DNA of 64,000 nucleotides from Candidatus Nomurabacteria bacterium (GTDB lineage Bacteria; Patescibacteriota; Minisyncoccia; Phycocordibacterales; UBA9973), in the NCBI GenBank assembly GCA_021413905.1, contig JAIOPO010000005.1, positions 81,271-145,270 on the forward strand. The letters run 5' to 3'. The position numbers and the translations under genes were made by a program. Below the pieces are notes generated by a model. The model had not been told where the DNA came from. It searched no databases and worked only from the letters and a program-made list of their open reading frames with translations. Shown here piece by piece: positions 3,009-49,266 of the stretch (its first letter is position 1; every line of letters begins with the position of its first letter).

Positions 3009-3096
3009 ATGTAATAATTATACCATTTGAGAATTTAGATTCAAAGGAATATATAAAAAATATTATTGAAAATATTTTTTATAACACTAAGGTTTG

Positions 3097-3170
3097 TCCA
3101 CCCTCTTGGATTCGAACCAAGGACCCCAGAGGTATAAGCTCTGTGCTCTAACCAACTGAGCTAAGGGTGG
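3097..3170 (-). tRNA. tRNA with anticodon UAU (AUA-decoding tRNA-Ile type).
   Basis: Folds as a 74-nt cloverleaf on the minus strand: acceptor CCACCCT/AGGGTGG, U8, D-arm GCTC-AGTTGGTTA-GAGC with G18G19, anticodon arm CAGAG-CTTATAC-CTCTG (U33, anticodon TAT), T-arm CTTGG-TTCGAAT-CCAAG, discriminator A. No CCA is encoded. Confidence 0.7.
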
Positions 3171-5620: not shown

Positions 5621-6014
5621 TTTGTGGAACTGACGAGAATTGAACTCGTGTGCAGAAGGTTTTTGCAAAGAAGTCTACATATTTAGCGCATTTTTTTGTT
5701 TAAATTTTAAAATTCTTAAATGAACAAAATATTTTAAAATCGAGTTCTAAATTTTAGTGAAATATGCGAACAAATATTTCCTTATCCCGATAATATTATA
5801 CCCATTCTCATATATCGGAAGTCTATGAGATGGACACCAGTTTGGCTTACGCGAAAGCTGGAGCGAAAGCAAAATCATTCATACCGAAGTATGGTGATGC
5901 TTTCACTTTAGAAGCTAATTTTGCAATTAACATTTGAACTAAGTTTTACGAGATTACGTTCATTCTCGATATGCATCAATAGCAAAAGGCCCACTGTCTA
6001 TGCCTTGCAGTCCC
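5621..6014 (-). ncRNA. ssrA: tmRNA (ssrA, transfer-messenger RNA).
   Basis: The 5' GGGACUG pairs with the 3' CAGUUCC, giving the G3:U70 tRNA-Ala identity pair. The 3' T-arm is ACGAG-TTCAATT-CTCGT followed by a 7-nt acceptor strand and discriminator A. An internal tag reading frame ends ...GMNDFAFAPAFA-UAA. It lies immediately downstream of and co-oriented with smpB. Confidence 0.75.
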
Positions 6015-6520: not shown

Positions 6521-7888
6521 ATGTCAAAATTAAATGTTTCTGGATATAGAGGAATATGGGGACAAGATTTAAACGAAAAAATTGCTTTTGAATATGGTTT
6601 GGCTTTTGCAAGATTAATAAAAAGTCAGCAACCAACAAAAAAATGTAAAATTTTAATAGGTAGAGACGCACGAAAAACAGGACCGCAAATATTGGAAGCT
6701 TTTCGGCAAGCATTTGCAAAAGAAAAAATAGATTTTGAATATGCAGGGATTATACCTACTCCTTCGATATTATTATTGGTTAAAAAATTATCTTTCGATG
6801 GAGGTGTGATGATCACTGCTTCGCACAATCCTCCTGAATACAATGGAATGAAGTTCATAAACAATGCAGGGCTTTTTGCCACGCAAGATGAAATTGAAAA
6901 AATAATAAATCTACTCCCCCTTCAAGAGAAGAACCAAGTAGTCAATCTTGAGGTCTTGCCTAAAGAGTTTGAAAACGAAAAATACAGAAAAATACACATA
7001 GATGAAATATTGGAAAATGTGGATATTGAAAAAATAAAAAGTAAAAAATTCAAAATCGCGCACGATCCGATAAATAGTGCCGGCAGTGTCATCACAATGG
7101 AATTACTACAAAATTTGGGTTGTGAAGTTTTTCAAATAAATGAAAACCAAAACGGAGATTTTGCTCATATACCGGAGCCTATCGCGCAAAATCTAGGACA
7201 ACTGTCTGAAGCTGTAATAAAAAACAAAACTGACATAGGTTTTGCTCAAGACCCGGACGCAGACAGATTGGTAATGGTAAATGAAAAAGGAGAAATATTA
7301 AACGAAGAATACACATTAGCACTTGCAATAAAAAATATTTTACAAAAAAATTCCAAAGAAAAAAATGCTGTGGTTATAAATATGTCCACTTCAAATATAT
7401 CTGCAGATATTGCAAAAGAAAATAATGCGGAAATCTTTCGCACAAAAATCGGTGAAGCAAATGTGGTAAACAAAATGAAAGAAATAAATGCAATTATCGG
7501 AGGTGAAGGTAGTGGTGGTGTTATCTATCCAAAAATAAATACTGCGAGAGACAGTCTAGTAGGTATTGCTCTCACTCTTGAACTAATGGCAAATTTAAAT
7601 AAAAGTATTTCTGAAATAATAAATGAATTTCCTAAATATTTCATAAAAAAAGACAAAATTGCTTTTACAGGAGAATTGAATTTAATTTATGAAAAAATGA
7701 AAAAGACTTTTGAAAATGCTGAAATTAATACATTGGACGGCCTCAGATTTGACTGGAATGATTCTTCTTGGTTACATATAAGACCATCCAACACAGAGCC
7801 AATAATACGTATATTTTGTGAAGCAAAAAGCCAAAAACGCATAGATACCATATTGGAACAAATAAAGTTGACTTTAAGCGAGCAATAA
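6521..7888 (+). CDS. Alpha-D-phosphohexomutase (phosphoglucosamine mutase / phosphomannomutase type).
   Basis: Active-site serine loop ITASHNPPEYNGMKF; ~455 aa. Confidence 0.8.
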   Translation: MSKLNVSGYRGIWGQDLNEKIAFEYGLAFARLIKSQQPTKKCKILIGRDARKTGPQILEAFRQAFAKEKIDFEYAGIIPTPSILLLVKKLSFDGGVMITASHNPPEYNGMKFINNAGLFATQDEIEKIINLLPLQEKNQVVNLEVLPKEFENEKYRKIHIDEILENVDIEKIKSKKFKIAHDPINSAGSVITMELLQNLGCEVFQINENQNGDFAHIPEPIAQNLGQLSEAVIKNKTDIGFAQDPDADRLVMVNEKGEILNEEYTLALAIKNILQKNSKEKNAVVINMSTSNISADIAKENNAEIFRTKIGEANVVNKMKEINAIIGGEGSGGVIYPKINTARDSLVGIALTLELMANLNKSISEIINEFPKYFIKKDKIAFTGELNLIYEKMKKTFENAEINTLDGLRFDWNDSSWLHIRPSNTEPIIRIFCEAKSQKRIDTILEQIKLTLSEQ

Positions 7889-11785: not shown

Positions 11786-12259
11786 TTATTTATGTTCAGC
11801 GTAAATAAAATCAGCATCTATCTTTTCATAAGAAAAAATTTCATTTTCAAAAAAGAAACGCGCGACTTCTGTCTCACCAGCCTCTACAGAATCAGAAGCA
11901 TGAACAATATTTGATTGTGTGGAAAGAGAAAAATCTCCGCGAATAGTGCCTGCATTCGCTTCCCAAGCTTTCGTCGGGCCCACTAGTAAACGAATAGCAG
12001 AAACGGCGTTAATGCCTTCTACTGCTAAGACTACCACCGGACAATGTTTCATAAAGTCTCTAATACCAGGAAAAAATGGCTTATCTTTGATATGAGCATA
12101 ATGTTCTTCTAACGTCGCATCTTTTAGATTCATCATTTTCATTCCGACTATTTTTAAACCTTTTCTTTCAAGGCGAGAAACTATTTCTCCCACCAAATTT
12201 CTCTGAACTGCGTCAGGTTTTATAATAATCAATGATTTCTCACTATTTGGTCTTGTCAT
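11786..12259 (-). CDS. ndk: Nucleoside diphosphate kinase.
   Basis: NDK fold with the active-site His in NIVHASD. Confidence 0.9.
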   Translation of the reverse strand: MTRPNSEKSLIIIKPDAVQRNLVGEIVSRLERKGLKIVGMKMMNLKDATLEEHYAHIKDKPFFPGIRDFMKHCPVVVLAVEGINAVSAIRLLVGPTKAWEANAGTIRGDFSLSTQSNIVHASDSVEAGETEVARFFFENEIFSYEKIDADFIYAEHK

Positions 12260-12328: not shown

Positions 12329-13144
12329 CTATTTTACAAATTTGCCGACAATACAAGCCTCAGCTCCTATTTTTTGATTCTTTCTTGGAAAGATAATACA
12401 TTCATTTTTCTTTGATTTAATCTTTTTTATTCCATCTATTGCAAACACAGCATTATCCGGAAGTAATTCAAAATTTTTATAATCTTTCATAAAATTAAAA
12501 TTATTTGTTTTTGCTTTTAAAACTTTGGTAACTTGAACTATTTTTTTATTTGTTCTTTTTTTATTTGAAACATGGAAATCCATCAAATTAAAATAATCTA
12601 TAAATTTATAAATTTGTTTTTTTGCAAATTCTTTATATTCTTCTGGTTTAGAAACCGGACCGCATTCTAAACAAATTCCTATTTTGTTTTGATTTTCCAT
12701 ATAGCCATCCGTTGCCCCCGGTTCTATTTTGTTCCAACCATATGAAATAATATTAACATCAAATATTGAAGCAATATTTAAATTTTTTTTACCACAAATA
12801 ATAAAAGGGTTCCCTTTTGGATCATTAAAAGCATGCAAATCTAGCAAAGCGTTACTTTTATCTAAAATTTTCATTAATACTCTGGCAATAATATCTTCTT
12901 TATTTTTTTCCTTATTATCTTTCAAAAAACAACGATTTAAATTTTTATCCAACATACGAACATTCTTTTTTACAGCTAAAGGATTCGCCACGACAAAATA
13001 AATTATTCCTTTTTTAATTTTTATTTCCTTAATTATTTCTTTTACCGCCAAGACTCCCACCTTTTCATTACCATGAATACCTGAAAAAACAGCCAGCACT
13101 GGTCCTTTTTCTTTTCCTTTGATTGTTTTTACGTATGGTTGCAT
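12329..13144 (-). CDS. Succinylglutamate desuccinylase / aspartoacylase (AstE-AspA, M14-like zinc deacylase) family protein.
   Basis: Zinc-binding GIHGNE and DLH motifs near the N-terminus, as in the AstE/AspA family. Confidence 0.65.
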   Translation of the reverse strand: MQPYVKTIKGKEKGPVLAVFSGIHGNEKVGVLAVKEIIKEIKIKKGIIYFVVANPLAVKKNVRMLDKNLNRCFLKDNKEKNKEDIIARVLMKILDKSNALLDLHAFNDPKGNPFIICGKKNLNIASIFDVNIISYGWNKIEPGATDGYMENQNKIGICLECGPVSKPEEYKEFAKKQIYKFIDYFNLMDFHVSNKKRTNKKIVQVTKVLKAKTNNFNFMKDYKNFELLPDNAVFAIDGIKKIKSKKNECIIFPRKNQKIGAEACIVGKFVK

Positions 13145-13210
13145 TAATAATTAAATAAATATTTATAAATTAAAAAGGGCAAATTAGTTTTACTAAAAGC
13201 CCTTTATAAA

Positions 13211-13765
13211 TTAGAAAAAAACCCAAGAACAATCTTTAAAAAGAGGACAGATCTTACAATTTTCTTTTCTGTCATTACACCGAAGACATAAAGTTTTTCT
13301 TAATGCTTCGCAACAAGAATGGTCTTCCATTAAACAACCATTTACTTTGCGAAAAATTTTCTGAACAACTTCATTACTACTTATACTAACAGAAACCCAA
13401 TTTTTTTCTTTAGCAAATTTTAATCTTTCACGAATCAATGACTCACCTATACCGTTTCCACGGTAATCAGGCAAGACAAAATTTGTACCAATTTCAACAA
13501 CCTTTTTACCGTCAAGATATGGTTCTGACTTATCACAGGTTCTAGGTAAAAAAATACCAGCAGCTCCTATGATTTCATTATTTTCATAACTAAAAACGGC
13601 CATTAATAACGTACTCTTAATCTCATCAACAGACAAAGTAAGCATATGCTTCTCTTCTCTAGTTTTACATGACCACCATTCAAAATTCTGGGTGATTCTT
13701 GCACTTTCTTGTCTATTCCTATCGGTAAAGTCAAAAATTTCCACTTTTTTTTCTGATGTTTTCAT
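13211..13765 (-). CDS. GNAT-family N-acyltransferase with a C-terminal cysteine-rich tail.
   Basis: Acyl-CoA-binding R/Q-x-x-G-x-G/A motif (RGNGIGESL). The C-terminal 45 aa contain 9 Cys (C..CC..C..C..C..C..C). Confidence 0.65.
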   Translation of the reverse strand: MKTSEKKVEIFDFTDRNRQESARITQNFEWWSCKTREEKHMLTLSVDEIKSTLLMAVFSYENNEIIGAAGIFLPRTCDKSEPYLDGKKVVEIGTNFVLPDYRGNGIGESLIRERLKFAKEKNWVSVSISSNEVVQKIFRKVNGCLMEDHSCCEALRKTLCLRCNDRKENCKICPLFKDCSWVFF

Positions 13766-13835
13766 ATTATAAAAAGAACGATGAATTTAAAACAGTCCAA
13801 CTATTATAATATCAAAATAAAAAAAATATTCAAAA

Positions 13836-14747
13836 TTACTTATCCACACCTACCAGAAATTGCAAAATAATATCTTGTGCTATTTTTATTGTCATTTCTG
13901 GTTTATCTTTTTCTGGATTAACTTCAACTAAATCAATAGAGAAAAGTTTCTTTGAAGCCATAATTGGTTGCATGCAAATATTAACCATTTCAGCACTAAA
14001 ACCATTAACATTTGGAGTACCAGTAGCACTGACTAAATCTTTCTTAAATACATCAATATCAAAAGTAACATGCAATACATCCATACGAGAACAAAAATCA
14101 TTTATATATGAAATTATTTCAGAAGAATTTGAATTAATATCATTTGAACTAATAATTTTAATATTTTTCTCATTGATAAATCTTTTTTCTTCATCTTCCA
14201 AAATCAAATTACCAATATATAAAAAATTATCTGTTGGAATACGAACATTGGCAACTTGAATAATATTTTCTTCATCAAAATCACTCAACAAAGGCCTTAG
14301 CCACATACCGTGAACATTTCCAGACGGACTTGTTTTTGATAAATGTATATCACCATGAGAATCAAAGTCTATAAAACCCACTTTTTTGTTTTCTAAAAAT
14401 TTCAAAGAAGCTATATCTGAAGCAAGAGCGACACTATGATCTCCTCCTAAAGTTACTACAAATTTATAATTATTAAAATTCAATTCACTTAAAATTTTTT
14501 CAGATAAATCTTTTGTCTCCTTAGAAAAAACAGAATAATAATCTTCGTCTAATACATCTTCCGGATTCGAAAAACTAAAATCTAATATTTTTAAATTATA
14601 TTTATCTTTTAAATTTCCTAAAAAATGTTCATCTAAAACAGCATCGGGACCATTCTCTACACCTATATTTAAAACTGTATCTCCTCCAAAAGGTAAAAAT
14701 TTCATACCTAGCCGAGATTTTGCTTTTATTAAAAGTAAGTTATTCAT
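13836..14747 (-). CDS. Arginase / agmatinase / formiminoglutamase (ureohydrolase) family protein.
   Basis: Binuclear-Mn ligand motifs GGDHS, DFDSHGD and TFDIDVF. Confidence 0.75.
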   Translation of the reverse strand: MNNLLLIKAKSRLGMKFLPFGGDTVLNIGVENGPDAVLDEHFLGNLKDKYNLKILDFSFSNPEDVLDEDYYSVFSKETKDLSEKILSELNFNNYKFVVTLGGDHSVALASDIASLKFLENKKVGFIDFDSHGDIHLSKTSPSGNVHGMWLRPLLSDFDEENIIQVANVRIPTDNFLYIGNLILEDEEKRFINEKNIKIISSNDINSNSSEIISYINDFCSRMDVLHVTFDIDVFKKDLVSATGTPNVNGFSAEMVNICMQPIMASKKLFSIDLVEVNPEKDKPEMTIKIAQDIILQFLVGVDK

Positions 14748-14800: not shown

Positions 14801-17575
14801 CTACCCATTTCTCTTCTCATATCTGCCCATGATTTCTGCTTCAACTTCTTCCCTGTCACGTCCATATTTGAGATAGGATAATTCTTTCAGACTTTCCACT
14901 ATTTCCGGATTGCCTTTTGGCAACAAAGACCAATGAGATGTCATACTGAAAGGTTTTGTAGGTGTGCCATTTACGAGCATACTCACATAAGAATTAAAAT
15001 TATCCAATTTCATAATATCTGTCGCTGAAAAAGTTGGCTTAAATTTAGACTCAATGGCAGTGGCATCTTCTGGAGAAACACGATAAACAGCCATAGAACC
15101 GACGTTTCCAAAAACAGCATTTTTAATATTTTCTTCAAGTTGAGAAATGTATTGATGAGCGACAGTCAAAGACAAACGATATTTGCGGGCTTCGGAAAGA
15201 ATAGAAGCGATGGAGTCTGTAGTCACATTTTGGAATTCATCGATATAAAGATAAAAATCATTCATCGGTTTGCCAAACATATCCACGCGAGAAAGTGCCG
15301 CCATTTGTATTTTACCTACAAGTAAAAGACCTATCAAATTCGCATTGATGTCTCCCAGGCGACCTTTGGATAAATTAACCAAAAGTATTTTTTTATTATC
15401 CATAATTTCTCGGAAATTAAAAACAGATTTTTCCTGCAAGACCACAGGACGCATAATATCATTTGAAATAAAATTATCAAATTTAGAAGTAATATACGGC
15501 ACAAAGTTTGCCAGGCCTTGGTCACCTGTTGTTTGTTCCGCAGCCATCCAGAATTGCTTGATAATAGGATTTTTACATTTTGCCAATTTCATATCACGAA
15601 ATTCTTTGTCAGTCAAAACACGGGAAATCTCAAGTAATGTACAACCAGACTCAGGATCTTCCATTATCAAAAAAGCGGAATTTTTGAAATATTGTTCAAA
15701 CATCGGCCCACCGGAAGTTTTCATATCAAAAAGTTTATTAAAAATTCCCATCAATTCGTTTACTACAAAAGTTTTTTGTTCAGGATATTTTGGATCAAAT
15801 TCAAGCATATTGAGACCCATAGGACGCGCAGTATATGCAGGATCAAAATAAATAACATCATCAATGCGTTCTTTTGGAACATAAGACAAAATCTCTTGTA
15901 TATCACTACCATGCGGATCTATAAAACAACAACCATCACCATTCATAATATCTTGAGCAATCATATTTTTTAAAATAGTGGTTTTACCAGTACCAGTCTG
16001 ACCTATAACATACATATGACGCATTCTATCTTCACGAGACATATGTATTTCTGTGTCACGTCCTCTATAACTATTTATCCCCAACAATATACCATCTTTG
16101 CCCATTTCCATAGGAGCAGGTGCCATACCGGCTTTTGCTTCTTTGAGTTGAGGTTGACTTGAAATACCGACAGGATAATGAAAAACGGAAGCCAATTCTT
16201 TTAAATTCATCGGTAAAACTTTTCCAGAATTAAATGTGCGATAAGAAAAATCATGAAATAAATCTTTCAAGCCTGAACCTTTTATTTTTTCAAAAACAAA
16301 AGAATTACTCGCTGATTCTTTAAATTGATTAAAAGAAGACTCAATCTCATTCAAAATTTCTTCCGCACGGATTAATGTTTCCGCAGACGCAACAACACGA
16401 ATATTTGCTTTCAAAATTGAACTTTTTAATTTATTACCTATTTTCTCAACAGCCCCCTCATCCACAGGCCTTCGCCCTTTCATATATTTTTCATCTTTTT
16501 GTTCATTTTTTTTAGAATCATCAAATACCAAACCTTTCACTGCTTGAAAAAAAGCATGCTCAAATTTATAAAAATTATCATTTGCATGTTTTACAGAAAT
16601 TCCACTTTTTACATCATCTAAAATCATATGAAATTCTCTTGTAAATTTTTCACCCGCTGGAGCTACGACGATCTGTATAGCTGCTCCTTCTCCTTGTGTT
16701 TTTAATTTTGAAAATACATTCAAAATAGTATTCATAGGATCATGATCTATATTGTCATAAGTTTTTATAGGCAAAATCGGTCTTTCAGAAAAATGAGCAT
16801 AAGCCCCCACAGAAAAACCTTTTTCGTTGAAAAGATTATAATCTTCAGTTACTTCATTTATTTTTGCATCATGATAAAAAGCCAATACTTGTTTTTCAAA
16901 AAGAGAAATATACTTATTTGGAACAGCAGTATATACCACCACCTCATCACTTTGATTTCCTAACGCAACTTCAAGGGTGAAGTAATTGTCTTTTGAATTA
17001 AATTTATCTTCAGCTATTGATTGCATACCCGCATAAAATTGTTCCATTGCACCAATAAATTCTTTGAAACCTTTTTGCATTTCAGCTTCGTCTTTTGACG
17101 GTGGTAATGTAATTTCAAACAATGTCATATTTAAAGATTTCCAAATAGGTGTACCTTCTTTTAAACCAGAAATAAGTTGCCCTGTCTTTAAATACTGAAC
17201 CAATAATCTATGAAAATCATCATCGACATGAGCATTGTTCATTGAACTTACAGTATCTAAAGCATTTTTTATTCCCTTGGTTAATAAAATACCCAAAAGT
17301 TCTTCCATCACCACATCATGCTTTTCGGGTTTCAATTTTAAAATAATCGTTTCTTTTTCTTTTTTATTCAATAAATTATCTTTACTTAAAACATCAACAG
17401 AAGAAACTTTTTCATATTCAGAAATTGTATTATTCAACGTGTCAATTTCAGCATTTTCAAAATGACCCCTATCGATTAATTCTTTTTCTTTTTGAGCAAC
17501 ATGTGCGCGCAAATACTCCAATTCTTCATTTGGAGTTTTAAATTTTGGTATATCTTTAAAATATGAATTTTCCAT
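14801..17575 (-). CDS. Large P-loop ATPase. The C-terminal half is a TraG/VirD4/FtsK-HerA-type (type IV secretion coupling-protein-like) ATPase domain. The N-terminal ~500 aa are uncharacterised.
   Basis: Walker A GQTGTGKTT, Walker B LYIDEFQ, and a C-terminal TraD/TraG-like segment (RKYRLSLTVAHQYISQL). No N-terminal TM helices. Confidence 0.6.
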   Translation of the reverse strand: MENSYFKDIPKFKTPNEELEYLRAHVAQKEKELIDRGHFENAEIDTLNNTISEYEKVSSVDVLSKDNLLNKKEKETIILKLKPEKHDVVMEELLGILLTKGIKNALDTVSSMNNAHVDDDFHRLLVQYLKTGQLISGLKEGTPIWKSLNMTLFEITLPPSKDEAEMQKGFKEFIGAMEQFYAGMQSIAEDKFNSKDNYFTLEVALGNQSDEVVVYTAVPNKYISLFEKQVLAFYHDAKINEVTEDYNLFNEKGFSVGAYAHFSERPILPIKTYDNIDHDPMNTILNVFSKLKTQGEGAAIQIVVAPAGEKFTREFHMILDDVKSGISVKHANDNFYKFEHAFFQAVKGLVFDDSKKNEQKDEKYMKGRRPVDEGAVEKIGNKLKSSILKANIRVVASAETLIRAEEILNEIESSFNQFKESASNSFVFEKIKGSGLKDLFHDFSYRTFNSGKVLPMNLKELASVFHYPVGISSQPQLKEAKAGMAPAPMEMGKDGILLGINSYRGRDTEIHMSREDRMRHMYVIGQTGTGKTTILKNMIAQDIMNGDGCCFIDPHGSDIQEILSYVPKERIDDVIYFDPAYTARPMGLNMLEFDPKYPEQKTFVVNELMGIFNKLFDMKTSGGPMFEQYFKNSAFLIMEDPESGCTLLEISRVLTDKEFRDMKLAKCKNPIIKQFWMAAEQTTGDQGLANFVPYITSKFDNFISNDIMRPVVLQEKSVFNFREIMDNKKILLVNLSKGRLGDINANLIGLLLVGKIQMAALSRVDMFGKPMNDFYLYIDEFQNVTTDSIASILSEARKYRLSLTVAHQYISQLEENIKNAVFGNVGSMAVYRVSPEDATAIESKFKPTFSATDIMKLDNFNSYVSMLVNGTPTKPFSMTSHWSLLPKGNPEIVESLKELSYLKYGRDREEVEAEIMGRYEKRNG

Positions 17576-17613
17576 TTATTTAATTATACCCTTTAGTTAA
17601 AATTTTCCAAAGT

Positions 17614-18396: not shown

Positions 18397-19080
18397 TTAT
18401 TTTATTACAGTACCAATAAATTTTTCTCCGTTTAAGTAATTCTCTAAATTTTCCAAATTCTTACCATTCATTATAGCTACTTCGATATTTTGTTCTTCGG
18501 ATTTTTTTGCAGCGACAGGATCAAAAGGTGTATTTAATCCAGGATTCCACTCAAGAGGTAATATTTTTCTAAATTCTTCCCAAGAAATATTTTCTATTTT
18601 TTTAGCATCAGAAAATTTATTAGGATCCTTATCGTAAACATAATCTATATTCGAAAGATTAATTACTTTTTTTGAATTAACAGAAATAGCACAATGAATT
18701 GAAGCTAAATCACTACTATTACCAGGCCTCCAACCACCACCAACCATAATATGCTTATCTGTAATTGGTATCAAATCTGGATCTAAAATTAACTTACTAT
18801 AAACAATATCTCCAAAAATAATACGCACTAAATCTGCATTCATTCTCGTAAAAGCTATGCCCATCAAATCCAATTCAGTATCAGAAGGATTTGTAATTTG
18901 TTTTAAAGCATCCAAATATTTTCTGCAACATCTACCACCACCAGTAATAATAATAAATTTTTTACCTTTTTCAACTTGTGAAATAATCAAATTTTTAAAA
19001 TCCTTCAAAAAATCAACATCGATTTCTTCCGGAACAATGAGCGAACCACCCAATGAAATTACAATTATTTCTTCTTTCAT
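18397..19080 (-). CDS. pyrH: UMP kinase (archaeal-type, amino-acid-kinase fold).
   Basis: ~225-aa AAK-fold protein with an ISLGGSLIVPEE N-terminus and the GGG..R nucleotide loop; resembles short archaeal-type UMPK. Confidence 0.65.
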   Translation of the reverse strand: MKEEIIVISLGGSLIVPEEIDVDFLKDFKNLIISQVEKGKKFIIITGGGRCCRKYLDALKQITNPSDTELDLMGIAFTRMNADLVRIIFGDIVYSKLILDPDLIPITDKHIMVGGGWRPGNSSDLASIHCAISVNSKKVINLSNIDYVYDKDPNKFSDAKKIENISWEEFRKILPLEWNPGLNTPFDPVAAKKSEEQNIEVAIMNGKNLENLENYLNGEKFIGTVIK

Positions 19081-19703: not shown

Positions 19704-20315
19704 TTGAATAATCAAGGTTTTTGTAATAGAATGAATCTTATAATGAAAAAACAAATTATTACTCTAGCTGGAGCTCCTGGTAGTGGAAAATCAAGTACAG
19801 CAGATAAATTGGCAAAAGAATTAAATTATCAACGTTTTTCTTCTGGTGATTTTATGAGAAAAATTGCTCTTGATATGAGTATATCGTTAAATGAATTATC
19901 TACTTTGGCCGAAACAGACACGAGTATAGATGAAAAAATAGACGCTGAAGTCCAAAAAGCAAGGGAGATGAATAATGCTGTTATTGACTCACGACTAGCA
20001 TATCATTGGATACCTGAATCATTCAAGGTATACCTTTCTTTACCTGCAAATATAGCCAAAGAAAGAATTTTAAGTAATTTGAAAACAAATAAATTACGAC
20101 AAGAAAGCGAAGGTATTTCAAATGTAGAAGAAATATATAAAAAAATAACTCACAGAATGGAAAGCGAGAAAAAAAGATACAAAGAATTATATAACATAGA
20201 TCATACAGACAAAAATAACTTTGATTTGGTTATAGATACAAATGAAAACAACCTAAATAAAGTCGTTGAAACAATACTAAAAGAATATGAAAATTGGCAA
20301 AACAAAAAAGACTAG
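19704..20315 (+). CDS. cmk: Cytidylate (CMP) kinase, short archaeal-like type.
   Basis: P-loop ITLAGAPGSGKSS. The real start is probably an internal Met (MNLIMKKQ...). On the opposite strand to its neighbours. Confidence 0.65.
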   Translation: MNNQGFCNRMNLIMKKQIITLAGAPGSGKSSTADKLAKELNYQRFSSGDFMRKIALDMSISLNELSTLAETDTSIDEKIDAEVQKAREMNNAVIDSRLAYHWIPESFKVYLSLPANIAKERILSNLKTNKLRQESEGISNVEEIYKKITHRMESEKKRYKELYNIDHTDKNNFDLVIDTNENNLNKVVETILKEYENWQNKKD

Positions 20316-40769: not shown

Positions 40770-41768
40770 TTGAAAAGTTATAATTCAATTATGCAAAATA
40801 AACTTATTGGTAAACATGTAGATGAATTGTATTTAGACCTCTTGGAACACATTATGAAAAATGGTGTCGAGAAAACTGACCGTACAGGCACAGGCACAAA
40901 GAGCATTTTTGGCTATCAAATGCGTTTCAATCTCGCTGATGGCTTCCCTCTCCTGACCACTAAAAAAGTACCCATCAAATCCATCATACATGAATTGCTT
41001 TGGTTTATGCGCGGAGATACAAATCTGAAATATCTTGCAGATAACAATGTGCATATCTGGGATGAATGGCCTTACAAAGCATATTTAAAAAGAAACAATT
41101 TACCAATTCCAGAAATCAATGGCGAAGAATGGAAAAATGGCATGGCAGAATTTGTGGATAAAATAAAAACTGACGAAAATTTTGCAAAAGAATATGGCAA
41201 ACTTGGACCGATTTATGGTTATCAATGGAGAAGCTGGCCTACACCAAACGGTAAACACATCGACCAGCTCGCAAATGTGATAGAGCAAATAAAAAATACT
41301 CCGGACTCTCGCCGAATGATTGTGTCTGCTTGGAATGTCGCTGACATCGAAGAAATGGCAAAAGCCGGACTACCCCCTTGTCATTGTTTTTTTCAATTTT
41401 ATGTTACTCAAGCAAACCCTTCGACCGGTGCTCAGGGTAAACTCTCCTGCCAACTTTACCAAAGAAGCTGTGATACATTTTTGGGTTTGCCTTTTAATAT
41501 TGCATCATATTCTGTGTTCACAATGATGATAGCTCAAATCTGCGGACTTGAAGCTGGCGAATTCGTCTGGACTGGAGGCGACGTGCATTTATATTCAAAT
41601 CATTTAGAGCAAGCCAGACTCCAACTATCCCGCCGTGGCGACATCCGCCCAATGCCGAAAATGAAAATCAATCCTAATAAAAAAAACATAGAAGATTTCA
41701 CGATAGAAGATTTTGAATTAACAGATTACAATCCGAATGAAGGCATCAAGGCGCCTATCGCAGTTTAA
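40770..41768 (+). CDS. thyA: Thymidylate synthase (ThyA).
   Basis: DRTGTGT and the active-site Cys region ([11 protein letters not shown]). The real start is probably the Met at about 40797. Confidence 0.9.
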
Positions 41769-41774
41769 AAAATT

Positions 41775-42281
41775 ATGATTTCAATCATTGCAGGAATTGG
41801 TAAAAATAATGAACTCGGAAAAAACAATGCTTTGCTTTGGCGTTTACCAGCAGATTTAAAACATTTCAAAGAATTAACTTCCGGTCATTCTATTGTAATG
41901 GGCAGAAAAACTTTTGAATCAATAGGAAAGATTTTACCAAATAGAAGAAATATAATAATTACTCGAGACAAAAATTATAAAATAGAAAATGCAGAAATAG
42001 CACATTCGCTCGAAGAAGCCCTTCGACTCGCTTCGCTCGCTCAGGGTAAACACTTAAACGAAGAAGTGTTTATTATTGGTGGTGCGGAAATATATAAACA
42101 AGCGATGAATTTTGCAGATAAACTTTATATCACAGAAATAAATGCAACGGACAAAAAAGCGGACGTATTTTTCCCGGAAATAATACCAATAGTATTCGGA
42201 GAAGTTTCCAGAGAAAATCATCAAAAAGATGAAAAAAATCCATATGATTATGCTTTTGTGGAATATAAGAGATTTTTCTAA
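41775..42281 (+). CDS. folA: Dihydrofolate reductase.
   Basis: MISIIAGIGKNNELGKNNALLWRLPADLKHFKELT matches DHFR. Confidence 0.9.
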   Translation: MISIIAGIGKNNELGKNNALLWRLPADLKHFKELTSGHSIVMGRKTFESIGKILPNRRNIIITRDKNYKIENAEIAHSLEEALRLASLAQGKHLNEEVFIIGGAEIYKQAMNFADKLYITEINATDKKADVFFPEIIPIVFGEVSRENHQKDEKNPYDYAFVEYKRFF

Positions 42282-42611
42282 TTAAGGATCTAAATCCGTC
42301 TTTTCTCGTATAAAAATATCTTTACCATCAGGAGATTTAACTTTTTTATATTTTCTATTTTTATTTTTTTCTATTTTGTCTACCAATTCTTTTTCCAAAT
42401 CAAAACCTAAAATCTCAGACATTCCTAAAAGGAATATAGCAACATCTGCAAATTCTTCTGCTACCCCCTCTTGCCCTTTATTGAATTTAGAAAATGCTTC
42501 TGAAAGTTCTTCATGAGCGCGACAAAATTCAAGAGCCACATCAGTGGTATTAAAACCTTTTTCCAATTTATTTCGCATTATTTCTTTTTGCAATTCTTTC
42601 AAATTTACCAT
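42282..42611 (-). CDS. MazG-like nucleotide pyrophosphohydrolase domain protein.
   Basis: Small all-alpha protein with EE..E...EE..D metal-binding pattern (EELSEA...EEFADVAIFLL). Confidence 0.6.
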   Translation of the reverse strand: MVNLKELQKEIMRNKLEKGFNTTDVALEFCRAHEELSEAFSKFNKGQEGVAEEFADVAIFLLGMSEILGFDLEKELVDKIEKNKNRKYKKVKSPDGKDIFIREKTDLDP

Positions 42612-42615
42612 AAAA

Positions 42616-43122
42616 TTATTTTTGATTATTATATTTTTGTACTTCTTTGTTTAAAAGTTTAAATTTTATTCCGGCTTCTTTAAAAATCTCTTTGGTTCTT
42701 TTGCTTGCATGATAATCTTTTTTTGCAATCACTTTTTCAATACCAGCATTTATAATCATTTTAGCGCAAGCATAACAAGGTGTCATATTGCAATACAATG
42801 TGCCACCAAACAAAGCGTTGCCCACTCGAGCTGCATGCACAATTGCATTTTGTTCAGCATGCGCGGTGCGAATACAATGCATAGATTCTGTTCCATCTGC
42901 ATGAATAACAGTATGCATTTCGTGACCAATATCATCACAATGTTTTGTATTCACAGGAGAACCGGCATAACCAGTGGCTAAAATTCTATTATCTTTTACA
43001 ATAATACAACCTGTTTGACCACGATCACAGCTAGACCTTTTTGCAACAGTATCCATAATCTCAATAAAATATTCATCCCAAGATGGACGCTTGCTTTTCA
43101 AAGGCTTTTCTTGTTTCTTCAT
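42616..43122 (-). CDS. dCMP (deoxycytidylate) deaminase.
   Basis: Zinc motifs HAE and PCxxC (HAEQNAI...PCYACAKMI). The ORF-track start at 43194 adds a hydrophobic 24-aa leader; start is more likely MKKQEKPL... Confidence 0.8.
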   Translation of the reverse strand: MKKQEKPLKSKRPSWDEYFIEIMDTVAKRSSCDRGQTGCIIVKDNRILATGYAGSPVNTKHCDDIGHEMHTVIHADGTESMHCIRTAHAEQNAIVHAARVGNALFGGTLYCNMTPCYACAKMIINAGIEKVIAKKDYHASKRTKEIFKEAGIKFKLLNKEVQKYNNQK

Positions 43123-43197
43123 ATACAATAAATATACTACTAAAATTAAAAAAAGCCAGTCACACAGACTGGCTTTTAAACATTTCAAAAACATTAA

Positions 43198-43767
43198 TTA
43201 AAATAAATTTGGGATTTTTGTCTTAAAATTTTCCCAATTTATTTTTCGCTCTTCGGGAAGATGAGCATTGTAAGGATAATTTCTATCAAAAACAAAATGC
43301 TCAAACACTGGTGTTTTTTTACCCTTTATTTGTGGCTTGTCATCCACAAGGTAATCACACAGAATATGAGTCTTATCGTAAGTCAAAGTTAGTGAATGAG
43401 CAGCATCTGAACCAAAGTTATCCAAAAGGCATTCATATTTTTCTTTATAAGAATGTCCCGCATTTGGTCCCCTGTTTGGAGTAGAAACAAACATAACATG
43501 ATGATTTAACTCAATCAAATTTTTATAAATTTCTACTGCTCCAGGTATTAAAGGCAAATCCTTGTAAAATCCTGGACGATGCCAAATTGCATTAATTCTT
43601 GAACGATACTCTTCAGGATAATTGGAAGAAAAATCCCATTCAGTTTGTTTATCACGATGAAAAAAATCAAGATCGGGAAATTCTTTTTTGCATTCTTGCA
43701 TCAATTTTCCCACCCAATCAAAACATGTATCATCAAGGTCAAAACCAAGAGTCATATACTTACTCAT
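43198..43767 (-). CDS. HAD-superfamily 5'(3')-deoxyribonucleotidase-like (NT5C family) protein.
   Basis: N-terminal DxDxT motif (GFDLDDTCFDW). Confidence 0.55.
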   Translation of the reverse strand: MSKYMTLGFDLDDTCFDWVGKLMQECKKEFPDLDFFHRDKQTEWDFSSNYPEEYRSRINAIWHRPGFYKDLPLIPGAVEIYKNLIELNHHVMFVSTPNRGPNAGHSYKEKYECLLDNFGSDAAHSLTLTYDKTHILCDYLVDDKPQIKGKKTPVFEHFVFDRNYPYNAHLPEERKINWENFKTKIPNLF

Positions 43768-46503: not shown

Positions 46504-49266
46504 CTAATTTGTTAAAGAATTAATTAATTTTCTTGTAGCAGGACCAAAAATACCATCAGCCTTTAAATTCAAATGTGATTTCTGAAATTGGATCAAAGCA
46601 TTTTTAGTAGCATTCCCAAATTTATTGGTTTCAAAACCTTTAGAACCAACACCTCTTAAAGAAACAGGAAAACCATTTTTATTCAAAAATTCTTGTAATT
46701 TCTTCACATCAAGAGAGGTGTTTCCAAACTTTAAATTATTTTTAAATTTAAAGTTATTATTTGAACTTAAATTTACACAATTATTCAAAGAGCAATCATT
46801 GTTGTTGATAAGATTATTTTGATTTTGATTTAAATTATTCAACAATAAAGCAACACCAGATGGTCTACTGTGCACAACAAAAGGAGTCATTGTTAACATA
46901 TTACTTTGATTACCAAAAGAATCCGTAACACGCACGAAACAATTATGTACACCGACAGGTAAATAGTTTAAAGTAATATGATTAACACCAGAAGAAACAG
47001 AAGTTGTACCAGAAGAACAATCACCATAAAAAACAACACTGCCAGATTCAGAAGAATTTAAATCATAAACAGGAGTACTGTTTGTTGAATTTTGAATTGC
47101 TGATATTTCATTTATTACAGGTGCTTCTGTGTCCACTTCATAATTAGAAGAATCAGTAGAAGCAGAAGGTGCATTACCTGTACTTGTATACCAAGAAGTA
47201 CCGACAGTGATAACATTTGAAAGATCAGCAACAGAAGAATCTGGTGTAAATAATGCCGTATAAATTGTAGGATCAGAAGTTACAGTAAAATCAGAAATTG
47301 AACCATTGGATACGGAAACATCAGCTGAAGTAAAAGCAGTGGGTGTCTCAGAAAAAGTAAATGTAATTGTCGCAGTATCACTTGATTTAAAAGTGTACCG
47401 ACTGAGTGAAATCACAACACTCGGTATAGTTTGATTTACGGTTAATGTATTAGCACTCACTGTTCCAGTTCTTGAATTCACAGCTATATCTGTCAGAACT
47501 GCTTTAAAATTAAAAATATCACTATTTGCAAAATCAGTAATTGCTTCAAAATCTGAAGCAGAGATAGACATTGTTTTTGTTCCAGCTACAACATCTCCAC
47601 TCAAAATAGTATACGCACTTCCAAGATTAGCATATGCACCACTATTTCTACTTGCTTGTATTTGAATTGTTCCACCAATCAAAGAATCATCATTAGAGTT
47701 TAAAGGAACAATAATATTTAAACTAGTATTAGTAGAATTCCAATAATCTGCAACAACGTTTCCACCCACAGATGTCACTGCCCCAGTAGTGAATGCAATC
47801 GGCAAAGTAACGTCAGTACCTGCTGATCCTAATAATAAAGTAGTAGTACCGGCTCCTTGATTTGAAACAGCGATATCTATAATCCCATCATTATTAAAAT
47901 CTGCAGTATTTAATGAAATAGGAGTAGACCCTACAGCGATATCTATTTTAGCACCGAAAGTTCCGTCTCCAACTCCAATTAAAAAAGAAATTGTATTTGC
48001 AGTTTGGTTTGAAACAATCAAATCCTGTTTTCCATCTCTATTTAAATCTACAACGGAAATAAAAACACCAGCATTAGTGCCGACATTATAATTCACAGCG
48101 GTAGCAAAGCTACCAAGACCATCACCAATTAAAACAGAAAGATTGCTTGTGGTTTGATTTGAGGAAACCAAATCAACTTTTCCATCATTATTAAAATCAC
48201 CATAACTCAAACCAATAGGAGCAGTACCAACACTATAATTCACAGCGGTAGCAAAGCTACCAAGACCATCACCAATTAAAACAGAAACGGAATTTGAAGT
48301 TTGGTTTGAAACAGCAATATCAAGATGACCATCACCGTTCAAATCAGTTGAAACAACTCCAGTAGGAGCAGAACCCACAGTAAATGATACAGGGTTAGCA
48401 AAAGTACCAGTACCTGAACCAAAAATAACAGTCGCACTCGTACCTGCTACTGTAGTGGAAACAACCAAATCAATATTACCGTCTTCATTGAAATCACCAG
48501 AAGACATATAACGAGATGTTTTACCAACAGAATAAGTAGAATTAGTACCAAAACTTCCAGCTCCATCACCCAGCAAAACAGAAATACTATTTCCATTATC
48601 ACTTGTAGCAGCTATGTCTAATTTTCCATCTTTGTTAAAATCAGCAACCACCATTCCTCTTGGACGTGAGGCTACTGTGTAATTCGTAGCGGTACCCATA
48701 TTCCCTGTTCCATCGCCGAGAAAAACAGAAATATTTGCAGATGTTTGATTTGAAACAGCCATATCCATATTTCCATCTTGATTGAAATCAGCAGTGACCA
48801 CAAATCTATTACTAGTACCTACAGTATAAGGTGAATGCGATTCAGCAGAAGCTGTATAGTCAAAAAAATGACAACCGCTTGTGGTAAAATTTTGAACAGT
48901 AGAAGCATTGCCTACTCCTGCACTATTCACAGCAAAAGCTTTATAGTAATAAGTAGTATTACATTTCAAAGAAGCACTTGGAAATGTATAAGAAAAAGAA
49001 CCAGTATTAAAAGAACCACTTTTTACAACTTGAAAATTTAAATTATTAGAAGCAGTACCATAATTAAAACCGACAGACAATGCATTCTCTCCACCAGTAT
49101 CACTAATATTTCCCAACAAAACAGCTGAAGTCGCCCCTACTGTAACCAAAGGTGAAGTAGTACTGACTGTTGGAGCAGAAATTGCAAATGCTGAATTTGT
49201 TAAAAATCCAAAGAATATAAAAATTATATATAAAAAAACGCCGTATTTTGTATTATATGTTCGCAT
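46504..49266 (-). CDS. Large exported protein: N-terminal FN3-like region, seven FG-GAP/VCBS-type repeats (beta-propeller) and a C-terminal peptidoglycan-binding (PG_binding_1-like) domain.
   Basis: Signal peptide. Repeats of the form DFN.DG..D.....N.....SV..G.G.G.F occur seven times. The C-terminal segment carries the PG_binding_1-like motifs KKLQEFLNKNGF...DGIFGPATRKLI. Confidence 0.7.
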   Translation of the reverse strand: MRTYNTKYGVFLYIIFIFFGFLTNSAFAISAPTVSTTSPLVTVGATSAVLLGNISDTGGENALSVGFNYGTASNNLNFQVVKSGSFNTGSFSYTFPSASLKCNTTYYYKAFAVNSAGVGNASTVQNFTTSGCHFFDYTASAESHSPYTVGTSNRFVVTADFNQDGNMDMAVSNQTSANISVFLGDGTGNMGTATNYTVASRPRGMVVADFNKDGKLDIAATSDNGNSISVLLGDGAGSFGTNSTYSVGKTSRYMSSGDFNEDGNIDLVVSTTVAGTSATVIFGSGTGTFANPVSFTVGSAPTGVVSTDLNGDGHLDIAVSNQTSNSVSVLIGDGLGSFATAVNYSVGTAPIGLSYGDFNNDGKVDLVSSNQTTSNLSVLIGDGLGSFATAVNYNVGTNAGVFISVVDLNRDGKQDLIVSNQTANTISFLIGVGDGTFGAKIDIAVGSTPISLNTADFNNDGIIDIAVSNQGAGTTTLLLGSAGTDVTLPIAFTTGAVTSVGGNVVADYWNSTNTSLNIIVPLNSNDDSLIGGTIQIQASRNSGAYANLGSAYTILSGDVVAGTKTMSISASDFEAITDFANSDIFNFKAVLTDIAVNSRTGTVSANTLTVNQTIPSVVISLSRYTFKSSDTATITFTFSETPTAFTSADVSVSNGSISDFTVTSDPTIYTALFTPDSSVADLSNVITVGTSWYTSTGNAPSASTDSSNYEVDTEAPVINEISAIQNSTNSTPVYDLNSSESGSVVFYGDCSSGTTSVSSGVNHITLNYLPVGVHNCFVRVTDSFGNQSNMLTMTPFVVHSRPSGVALLLNNLNQNQNNLINNNDCSLNNCVNLSSNNNFKFKNNLKFGNTSLDVKKLQEFLNKNGFPVSLRGVGSKGFETNKFGNATKNALIQFQKSHLNLKADGIFGPATRKLINSLTN

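Follow-up and report, generated by a model that had tools for sequence, protein, structure and literature searches.

The gene at positions 14801-17575 of the window, i.e., of the whole 64,000-nucleotide stretch of Candidatus Nomurabacteria DNA, encodes an ATPase that is, on balance, probably a domesticated monoderm-type coupling ATPase serving the patescibacterial type IV system. The protein would be a soluble and probably hexameric ATPase of the VirD4/TrwB/TraD coupling-protein branch of the FtsK/HerA superfamily, in which a VirB4-type N-terminal domain (DUF8128) would precede the nucleotide-binding and all-alpha module and replace the two-helix membrane anchor. Its family most likely derives from a coupling ATPase that served conjugation modules of the monoderm type (Tcp/ICEBs1/MPF-FATA-like); in the Paceibacteria this conjugation context would have been lost, and the gene would have taken up its fixed position with map on one side and ndk on the other, downstream of secY, adk and the ribosomal-protein genes. 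The family as such has already been catalogued (DUF8128 plus TrwB/TraG domains, with a homologue listed as T4CP); new here are its inheritance as a core gene, the conjugation-module context of its distant relatives, a putative leaderless promoter and the VirB4-like fold predicted for its N-domain.

The 924-aa open reading frame reported by the initial annotation is real and intact: it starts with ATG, comprises 924 codons plus stop and reads on the minus strand (ORF and translation). A plus-strand reading of the same interval was rejected, as that frame is full of stops. The encoded protein is identical to NCBI MCE9585515.1, which is named 'type IV secretion system DNA-binding domain-containing protein [Ca. 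Nomurabacteria]', and the GC content of the gene is 33.0% vs 33.3% for the window. The following features were assigned, the structural evidence coming from AlphaFold models throughout.

14801..17575, minus strand: whole CDS, DUF8128 plus coupling-protein-type ATPase (924 aa plus stop)
17171..17575, minus strand: soluble helical N-terminal extension, residues 1-135 (AF2 full-length model, pLDDT about 60-87; alignment)
16136..17170, minus strand: DUF8128 alpha/beta domain, predicted VirB4/TrwK N-terminal-domain-like fold, residues 136-480
16472..16573, minus strand: low-confidence K/E-rich loop of variable length within the N-domain, residues 335-368 (pLDDT <50 in both models; gapped in the alignment)
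14804..16108, minus strand: FtsK/HerA-superfamily nucleotide-binding domain of VirD4/VirB4 type, residues 490-924
15977..16003, minus strand: Walker A GQTGTGKTT, residues 525-533 (translation)
15908-15919, minus strand: DPHG after Walker A, residues 553-556, aligning with DPNG of TrwB
15440..15778, minus strand: all-helical insertion in the nucleotide-binding domain, residues 600-712, at the position of the all-alpha domain of coupling proteins
15230..15250, minus strand: Walker B LYIDEFQ, residues 776-782, aligning with LFIDEL of TrwB
15137..15187, minus strand: TraG-D_C segment RKYRLSLTVAHQYISQL, residues 797-813, aligning with KGRKAGLRVVAGLQSTSQL of TrwB
17583..17610, minus strand: promoter-like TTGGAA-16 nt-TATAAT (consensus scan; 7 nt separate the end of the −10 box from the ATG)

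The Walker A, Walker B and TraG-D_C motifs that had been quoted initially were each found exactly as given, and an alignment of 144 sequences identified G525, T527, G528, G530, K531 and D553-G556, further D779, E780, F781, Q782 and N783, and within the TraG-D_C segment R797, K798, A806, H807, Q808 and Q812 as invariant. Residue-by-residue alignment with TrwB recovered GxTGTGK, DP[HN]G, [IL]DE and RK...Q..SQL. The Pfam matches are weak and cover short stretches only, being nevertheless above the curated cut-offs: TrwB_AAD_bind 29.3 bits (cut-off 20.5), T4SS-DNA_transf 22.5 (20.1) and TraG-D_C 23.2 (22), the latter spanning residues 774-825. By these motifs, the Pfam matches and the TrwB alignment, the TraG/VirD4-like P-loop ATPase claimed at the outset is a coupling-protein-like one (TraG/VirD4/TrwB type). 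The NCBIfam TraD models remained far short of their cut-offs (15-52 bits vs 366-648), and in PDB searches, by single sequence and by profile, TrwB and DotL were matched in their P-loop region only. The protein does not qualify as an FtsK/SpoIIIE DNA translocase, for which an FtsK_SpoIIIE motor match at threshold would be expected together with a gamma domain and a membrane domain of polytopic type.

The protein might be considered a second VirB4 paralogue acting in machine assembly and pilin extraction instead of receiving substrates, its T4CP-like sequence signals being misleading. This is rather improbable, as VirB4 sequence models match the P-loop at most: PF03135 (CagE_TrbE_VirB), PF12846 (AAA_10) and PF19044 (P-loop_TraG) gave no Pfam match at E ≤ 0.01, and TIGR00929 (VirB4) reached 19 bits against a cut-off of 643, over the P-loop only. 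T4CP models and the t4cp1 profile, on the other hand, do match, and a 2025 Patescibacteria survey lists a 76%-identical homologue, KKS24372.1, under T4CP/t4cp1 (Table S3, PMC12102498), where the profile is covered to 88% and the gene is marked 'not near virB4'. The 556-kb genome encoding KKS24372.1 also carries separate VirB4 and VirB2-like genes (PMC12102498), and in a related Nomurabacteria genome a separate VirB4 gene is located 108 genes away from the coupling-type ATPase.

Structural modelling provided a more detailed view on the region preceding the ATPase. The initial annotation described it as a novel N-terminal domain of ~500 aa; such a region does precede the ATPase, but it is bipartite, a helical extension of 135 aa being followed by an alpha/beta domain of 345 aa. 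The novelty of the domain is not supported, as a precomputed match to Pfam PF26449 (DUF8128) is on record for the identical protein and for all 120 best homologues. In the predicted structure the DUF8128 domain folds like the N-terminal domain of VirB4/TrwK and thus differs from the VirD4 all-alpha domain that the initial annotation had named as the alternative. Comparing the DUF8128 profile by hhalign with three single VirB4-like sequences gave no match, and against an N-domain profile of 113 TcpF homologues a 33-column local match was obtained which is not significant (P = 0.054). The similarity between N-domain and VirB4 is hence one of predicted structure only, and homology would rest on fold and context. 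A literature search on DUF8128 found no papers. The models provide this Pfam family with a predicted structural assignment.

The N-terminal extension begins with a coiled-coil-like stretch, followed by conserved helices (HD..EL..GI.N.L..H..DDFHR.LVQY). No transmembrane (TM) helix is predicted for the window protein, in line with the earlier claim that N-terminal TM helices are absent: an N-terminal hydrophobic segment, and with it the N-terminal transmembrane domain typical of coupling proteins, is lacking, and the highest 19-residue Kyte-Doolittle mean (1.52) falls into a segment inside the ATPase core. In four of 23 full-length representatives of 50% clusters a hydrophobic N-terminal segment is found instead (KD19 1.9-2.75), forming a single TM helix; such homologues fit an action at the membrane. 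The protein combines a feature of coupling proteins, i.e., an all-alpha domain inserted into the nucleotide-binding domain, with one of VirB4, i.e., an N-terminal domain of VirB4 type ahead of the ATPase domain. According to the models, the protein of the Paceibacteria has an architecture of its own, in which a head of VirB4 type is joined to a motor of VirD4 type and the membrane anchor is missing; it may represent an intermediate form in the long-discussed VirB4-VirD4 relationship.

The closest known systems are TrwB (R388), VirD4, TraD and DotL (PF10412, PF02534, PF12696; CONJScan t4cp1). From these the window protein differs in that the 345-aa VirB4-like domain and the 135-aa helical extension replace the two-helix membrane domain, and its gene differs in being chromosomal, core, syntenic with map and ndk and unlinked to relaxase or T4SS genes. 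TrwK/VirB4 (R388; PDB 7o42, 7o41, 8rtb) and the VirB4 C-terminal domain of Thermoanaerobacter (4ag5) share ~9-11% identity with the window protein, whose gene has no adjoining VirB3. TcpA of pCW3 is the FtsK-like coupling protein (t4cp2) of monoderm conjugation, whereas the family studied here is VirD4-like (t4cp1) with a VirB4-type N-domain; ConQ of ICEBs1 is assigned to the same coupling role as TcpA.

Upstream of the gene the window holds secY, adk, an archaeal-type pyrH and map, and downstream an arginase-family gene, a GNAT gene, an AstE/AspA-like gene and ndk. A scan of the window ORFs, all large ones included, bore out these previously described neighbours as well as the absence of VirB, relaxase and pilin genes. 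The position behind map, regarded initially as an oddity, turned out to be the normal arrangement of the lineage. The actual anomaly is a low-GC block of arginase, GNAT and AstE genes inserted behind the ATPase gene. Among the conserved neighbours are ndk, adk, pyrH and cmk, together with genes for a beta-CASP nuclease and a SLOG protein.

The description of the gene as an orphan holds for its local neighbourhood only, as the family has thousands of members: a first search returned 1,540 homologues, a profile search 4,027 among the 8,000 candidates scored, and relatives are encoded in at least 370 species genomes. The best 120 matches are full length and 75-81% identical to the window protein. 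Of the related loci, 80 were fetched; the upstream side holds map (methionine aminopeptidase) in 36 of them (adjoining in 19), and the downstream side holds ndk in 38 (adjoining in 27). Mean identity to the window genes amounts to 62.6% for the ATPase, 61.0% for map, 67.6% for secY and 43.6% for adk; the ATPase hence diverges at the same rate as map, which identifies it as a vertically inherited core gene. The family is large, slowly evolving and widespread across the Paceibacteria (candidate phyla radiation).

These findings also bear on the earlier suggestion of a defence or effector ATPase. An anti-phage function of the HerA, DptH or MADS type is very improbable, as the matches obtained (PADLOC mad8, HerA) are limited to the shared ATPase fold. 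HerA, DptH (DndH) and MADS mad8 differ from the window protein, whose N-domain is VirB4-like and not a HAS-barrel, and whose context is one of housekeeping genes in which nuclease, Sir2, methylase, Dnd, MADS or other modification partners are absent nearby. Further, a fixed map-ndk place across the Paceibacteria and vertical, map-like slow divergence over at least 370 species are unlike defence islands.

Distant homologues of the family reside on plasmids and phages. They include ATPases of Bacillus plasmids, termed 'DUF87 domain-containing', as well as phrog_5156 from phages of Bacillus (gp156 of phage G, gp91 of CP-51 and gp033 of 0105phi7-2). Their homology is near full length, covering most of DUF8128 plus the ATPase: phrog_5156 matches residues 149-918 with an E-value of 9e-82, and tblastn matches span about 178-918. 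They are ~20-25% identical to the window protein, from which they differ in their location on mobile elements and in lacking the 135-aa N-terminal extension; the plasmid and 0105phi7-2 homologues share with it the lack of TM helices. The published 0105phi7-2 paper does not discuss its homologue. A B. subtilis plasmid (NZ_CP032854.1) carries the homologue, then Replic_Relax, then TcpC and TcpE further along, with TcpE followed by TcpF/AAA_10 (3e-116); in phage CP-51 a Replic_Relax gene comes after gp91, in phage G gp156 is preceded by a TrbL-like gp153 and a VirB4-like gp155, and on a Haladaptatus plasmid a VirB4-like gene lies directly upstream. With a relaxase-like gene as neighbour and TcpF/VirB4 encoded separately, the distant homologues in these conjugation modules occupy the coupling-protein slot. 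A second VirB4 paralogue is further disfavoured, since a distinct VirB4/TcpF-like gene coexists with the homologue on the Bacillus plasmid, in phage G and on the haloarchaeal plasmid, and since a relaxase-like gene adjoins it on the Bacillus plasmid and in CP-51.

A conserved conjugation locus in relatives, as had been considered at the outset, is found for very distant homologues on Bacillus and archaeal plasmids and phages, but for no relative within the candidate phyla radiation. While this mobile distribution would agree with the gene being left over from a conjugative element or prophage that integrated and is now decaying, such a remnant was rejected as the most improbable of the readings considered, given the intact frame, the invariant catalytic residues, a GC content equal to that of the genome, a synteny and divergence rate matching those of the housekeeping neighbours and the absence of integrase and relaxase.

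For the domesticated coupling ATPase a mode of action can be suggested. The epibiotic life of Patescibacteria is thought to depend on a type IV system, and the ATPase would be a concrete candidate for substrate delivery to the patescibacterial machine. Its VirB4-like N-domain might dock on the inner-membrane platform of a type IV system encoded elsewhere, or on the canonical VirB4, and ATP hydrolysis (Walker A K531, Walker B D779/E780, R797/K798/Q808 segment) would feed the substrate into the machine. As a relaxase is absent from most such genomes, this substrate is more likely a protein or a non-conjugative nucleic acid. Since T4SS genes are absent near the ATPase gene, in the window as in the 80 patescibacterial loci, it is homology alone that links it to a T4SS.

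The survey already cited found T4CP homologues in nearly every Patescibacteria genome (2,918 of 3,035, vs VirB4 in only 2,417), far from virB4, and left this unexplained; in Ca. S. epibionticum the T4CP homologue is not essential, whereas other T4SS genes are, and exaptation of T4CP homologues was raised by its authors (PMC12102498). In such a case, the protein would be an exapted housekeeping translocase, independent of a T4SS and moving nucleic acid or protein in an essential process of the cell, e.g., importing or handling host-derived DNA or RNA for nucleotide salvage. This is unlikely, though map-like conservation, the fixed place among housekeeping genes, the wider occurrence of T4CP homologues than of VirB4, the conserved neighbours named above and the absence of a TM helix in this clade all speak for it. 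The nucleotide theme of these neighbours may, however, be coincidence, adk and map being part of this operon in most bacteria, and the apparent own promoter of the gene weakens guilt by association. Moreover, the VirB4-like N-domain and the TM-anchored homologues suggest a membrane machine, and two t4cp2 (TcpA-family) matches in a related genome could be FtsK-like, in which case there would be no vacant role for an FtsK substitute. About as unlikely, if not slightly more so, is that a hybrid of VirB4 N-domain and VirD4 motor was exapted as an essential, constitutively expressed translocase without a conjugation channel, possibly as a motor for uptake or processing of host nucleic acid or protein in auxotrophic epibionts; if true, this would account for the wider spread than VirB4 and for the housekeeping-like evolution.

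With respect to the putative promoter, a −10-like box was found 4-12 nt upstream of the ATG in 44 of 78 relatives, mostly at 6-9 nt in those 44, and within the window 11 of 75 genes possess such a box, vs 1.3% of internal ATGs. This conserved −10 box suggests that the ATPase gene may have its own leaderless or near-leaderless transcript.

At ~13 divergent loci a large E/K-rich ORF and an ORF of 95-108 aa adjoin the ATPase gene; in the window such E/K-rich or DUF5663-/TPR-like partner ORFs are absent. A conserved partner gene was rejected, as BLASTP grouped only four DUF5663-like small ORFs and the large ORFs are patchily similar. By iterative profile search, seven of the small adjoining ORFs were identified as DUF5663-like and four as TPR-like.

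The ATPase gene was found to be a single open reading frame on the minus strand, with an ATG start and 924 codons; the plus-strand frame over the same interval contains stops throughout and is not coding. The initial annotation had described this frame, three ATPase motifs, the neighbouring genes and surroundings free of a type IV secretion system (T4SS), all of which stood, the motifs being recovered in the minus-strand translation. The features of the protein, with domain limits taken from the AlphaFold model, are as follows.

Features of the ATPase (window coordinates, then residues)
14801-17575 (-): ATPase gene
residues 1-135: helical extension
residues ~143-470: alpha/beta domain, with a disordered loop at 335-368
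residues 496-924: ATPase, with a helical insertion at 600-712
residues 525-533: Walker A, GQTGTGKTT
residues 776-782: Walker B, LYIDEFQ
residues 797-813: C-terminal segment, RKYRLSLTVAHQYISQL

The Pfam models TrwB_AAD_bind, T4SS-DNA_transf and TraG-D_C matched above their curated cut-offs, each over a short stretch, and the NCBIfam TraD models matched far under theirs. When compared with PDB sequences by phmmer, the protein matched TrwB (7.8e-5) and DotL, whereby the Walker A, DPHG/DPNG, Walker B and RK...Q..SQL segments correspond in the TrwB alignment. At the level of sequence VirB4 and VirD4 are thus set apart, as beyond the P-loop only coupling-protein models match. Residues K531, D779/E780, R797/K798 and Q808 do not vary across 144 sequences, and the protein is as a consequence very probably an active ATPase. 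In agreement with the initial annotation no transmembrane segment was predicted in it, so that its sequence describes an ATPase of coupling-protein type whose active site is intact and which in this clade is devoid of a transmembrane helix.

The N-terminal part had been regarded as a novel, uncharacterised domain, a view which did not survive structure prediction. The full-length AlphaFold model, derived from 144 sequences, reached a pLDDT of 82.9, and residues 136-480, modelled separately, gave a pLDDT of 87.7 and a pTM of 0.86. In the model this domain, assigned to Pfam DUF8128 by a precomputed match, has the fold of the VirB4 N-terminal domain, the likeness being one of fold only: a DUF8128 profile compared by hhalign with single VirB4-like sequences and with a profile of 113 TcpF homologues yielded as best result a local match of 33 columns (P = 0.054). 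This model-based assignment is new. In some homologues of 800-840 aa a strongly hydrophobic segment takes the place of the first ~135 residues (alignment A1 of family members), and such a segment was found in 4 of 23 diverse full-length representatives (KD19 1.9-2.75), which suggests that parts of the family are membrane-anchored. Structural comparison of the C-terminal half did not tell VirB4 and VirD4 apart, with scores of 29.1 for the VirB4 C-terminal domain (4ag5), 28.4 for the DptH C-domain, 26.8 for TrwB, 25.9 for HerA, 23.4 for DotL, 21.3 for Cag-beta, 17.1 for TcpA and 16.8 for FtsK. A role as a VirB4 paralogue is judged unlikely given the sequence class and the gene content of distant relatives.

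Such relatives were identified by tblastn in the Bacillus phages G, CP-51, JL, Shanette, SP-10 and 0105phi7-2 and on plasmids of Bacillus, Clostridium botulinum, Streptomyces/Embleya and haloarchaea, covering the ATPase plus most or part of the DUF8128 domain; Sulfolobus plasmids were also among the matching records. The same range of taxa is known for monoderm (MPF-FATA-type) conjugation systems. PHROGs family 5156, of unknown function, matches residues 149-918 (E 9e-82). On the B. subtilis plasmid NZ_CP032854.1 the homologue (886 aa) is followed directly by a Replic_Relax gene, then at some distance by TcpC, further on by TcpE with a TcpF-type AAA_10 ATPase (3e-116) adjoining it, and finally by a 784-aa protein, an arrangement which constitutes a Tcp/ICEBs1-like transfer operon whose coupling-protein slot, beside the relaxase-like gene, is occupied by the homologue. 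In phage G (84952-99066) gp153 (TrbL/VirB6-like) and gp155 (VirB4-like) precede the DUF8128 ATPase gp156, and on a Haladaptatus plasmid a VirB4-like gene precedes the homologue. CP-51 carries gp96 (actin-like) and gp91 (DUF8128 ATPase), the latter being followed by gp90 (Replic_Relax). Since a distinct VirB4/TcpF-like gene accompanies the homologue in the B. subtilis plasmid, phage G and the Haladaptatus plasmid, CP-51 being the exception, the gene content argues for the DUF8128 ATPase as the second, coupling ATPase of these elements and not their VirB4. The connection between this family and the coupling-protein slot in conjugation modules carried by Bacillus and archaeal plasmids and phages is reported here for the first time and places the distant relatives in an ancestral conjugation context. 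Large Bacillus phages (G, CP-51, 0105phi7-2) carry conjugation-like genes, 0105phi7-2 having a weak VirB2-like gp031 ahead of its homologue gp033.

Separately, in ~13 divergent Paceibacteria loci the ATPase is flanked by a 700-1,650-aa E/K/A-rich frame without Pfam match and a 95-108-aa acidic helical frame (DUF5663-like or TPR-like), sometimes also by a ~180-aa Thr-rich frame with a transmembrane helix. They lie upstream of the homologue in L004, L037, L041, L042, L002 and L052 and downstream in L060, L065, L072, L074, L077 and L084; L059 also belongs here. The large and small frames could be substrate/adaptor pairs; by BLASTP only four small ones group and the large ones share patchy similarity, and none of the three types occurs in the window.

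The designation as an orphan had to be abandoned. The protein is identical to MCE9585515.1 (Ca. Nomurabacteria), and 1,540 homologues came up in an initial search, of which the 120 best are all full length, 75-81% identical and precomputed as Pfam PF26449 (DUF8128). A profile search seeded with divergent members found 4,027 proteins (E ≤ 1e-5) among just 8,000 candidates scored, and residues 1-470 alone match 994 clusters (50% identity) of a 1.84-billion-protein library, in which full-length members span 800-1,120 aa. At least 370 species-representative genomes encode a relative, the best 80 all being Patescibacteria MAGs of Paceibacteria type (Nomura-, Taylor-, Yonath-, Kaiser-, Campbell- and Zambryskibacteria). 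Protein and family are thus already catalogued in NCBI product names, in Pfam and in a published count of type IV coupling proteins (T4CPs) (PMC12102498); a full-text literature search for DUF8128 found no paper.

Upstream of the ATPase and on its strand lie secY, adk, an archaeal-type pyrH and map; downstream, likewise on its strand, follow an arginase-family gene, a GNAT gene, an AstE/AspA-like gene and ndk. No T4SS component was found among the other large frames of the window (FtsH, a beta-CASP nuclease, a DEAD helicase, an FG-GAP surface protein and similar), and no T4SS gene recurs around the ATPase in 80 patescibacterial loci. In these, map is upstream in 36 (directly adjoining in 19) and ndk downstream in 38 (directly adjoining in 27), with adk, pyrH, a DUF2238 protein, the beta-CASP nuclease and a SLOG protein recurring around them. 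The ATPase had been noted in the place after map where infA-rpmJ-rpsM are usual; not the ATPase but the arginase/GNAT/AstE block (12329-14747, minus strand) is the local insertion, seemingly a lineage-specific one. By tblastn its genes were absent from all 80 loci, ndk there commonly coming straight after the ATPase, and its GC content is 27-29% as compared to 31-35% in the flanks. Over 41 loci the mean identity to the window protein is 62.6%, and for map 61.0%, SecY 67.6%, the beta-CASP nuclease 63.0%, adk 43.6% and ndk 43.2%; the gene hence diverges alongside, and as fast as, its housekeeping neighbours, core-gene behaviour that points to vertical descent under strong purifying selection. 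This synteny of map, ATPase and ndk and the housekeeping-like rate are new findings. The GC content of the gene (33.0%) equals that of the window (33.3%), and a remnant of a mobile element is the least probable reading; the defence role proposed initially is scarcely more credible for a gene in this setting.

As to the neighbours themselves, ndk (11786-12259) occurs at this position in two forms among otherwise syntenic relatives (L001-L085), ~80-86% or ~29-43% identical to that of the window, which suggests replacement in place. The UMP kinase (18397-19080, minus strand; TIGR02076, 184 bits, cut-off 158) and CMP kinase (19704-20315, plus strand; TIGR02173, 106, cut-off 102) exceed the cut-offs of the archaeal-type NCBIfam models and fall well under those of the bacterial ones. 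A cluster for pyrimidine and deoxynucleotide metabolism lies at 40770-43767 (thyA, folA, MazG-like, dCMP deaminase, NT5C 5'-nucleotidase); added to adk, pyrH, cmk and ndk close to the ATPase, it makes nucleotide salvage a prominent function of the window.

In a survey of the T4SS of Patescibacteria (PMC12102498), KKS24372.1, a homologue with 76% identity, is entered as a T4CP (profile t4cp1, coverage 88%) that is not near virB4; its 556-kb genome encodes VirB4 separately, at a distance of 108 genes, and has three VirB2-like genes and two matches to t4cp2. T4CP homologues were reported in 2,918 of 3,035 genomes, with just 148 near virB4, and VirB4 in 2,417 (PMC12102498). In the model favoured here, with somewhat better than even confidence, the N-domain would stand in for the usual membrane anchor and dock the ATPase onto the inner-membrane platform, or onto VirB4, of a patescibacterial T4SS encoded elsewhere, whereupon the motor would pass substrate into this machine. 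Relaxases being rare in these genomes (PMC12102498), a conjugative relaxosome is an improbable substrate. The main rival, exaptation to a T4SS-independent housekeeping translocase, is favoured by a distribution wider than that of VirB4 and by conservation like that of housekeeping genes; the survey itself raised exaptation and reported the T4CP homologue of Ca. S. epibionticum to be non-essential (PMC12102498). This rival is considered possible at a distinctly lower probability than docking to a T4SS, and both are more likely than the VirB4-paralogue, defence and remnant readings. The predicted function bears on T4SS evolution and on the biology of the candidate phyla radiation.

Finally, a −10-like TGnTATAAT (box at 17583-17588) ends 7 nt ahead of the ATPase ATG, and such a box lies 4-12 nt, mostly 6-9 nt, ahead of the ATG in 44 of 78 relatives, irrespective of the upstream gene. 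From this we infer an own promoter and a leaderless mRNA, so that the neighbourhood is not to be taken as co-transcription; this predicted, conserved promoter was likewise not described before. Window-wide, the box (TA[TAC]A[AC]T, often with upstream TG) precedes the start by 5-10 nt in 11 of 75 predicted genes, as compared to 1.3% of internal ATGs, which suggests that leaderless transcription is widespread in this genome. Further examples are the genes starting at 49266, 11053, 9670 and 11456 and, on the plus strand, at 7888. The first of these encodes a 920-aa protein, a candidate surface adhesin; two RNA genes were also noted.

46504-49266 (-): 920 aa; six FG-GAP repeats, Big_12 domain, peptidoglycan-binding domain at the C-terminus
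3096-3170 (-): tRNA-Ile, anticodon TAT
5624-6014 (-): tmRNA, tag AKLASKVKASPYFGMNDFAFAPAFA
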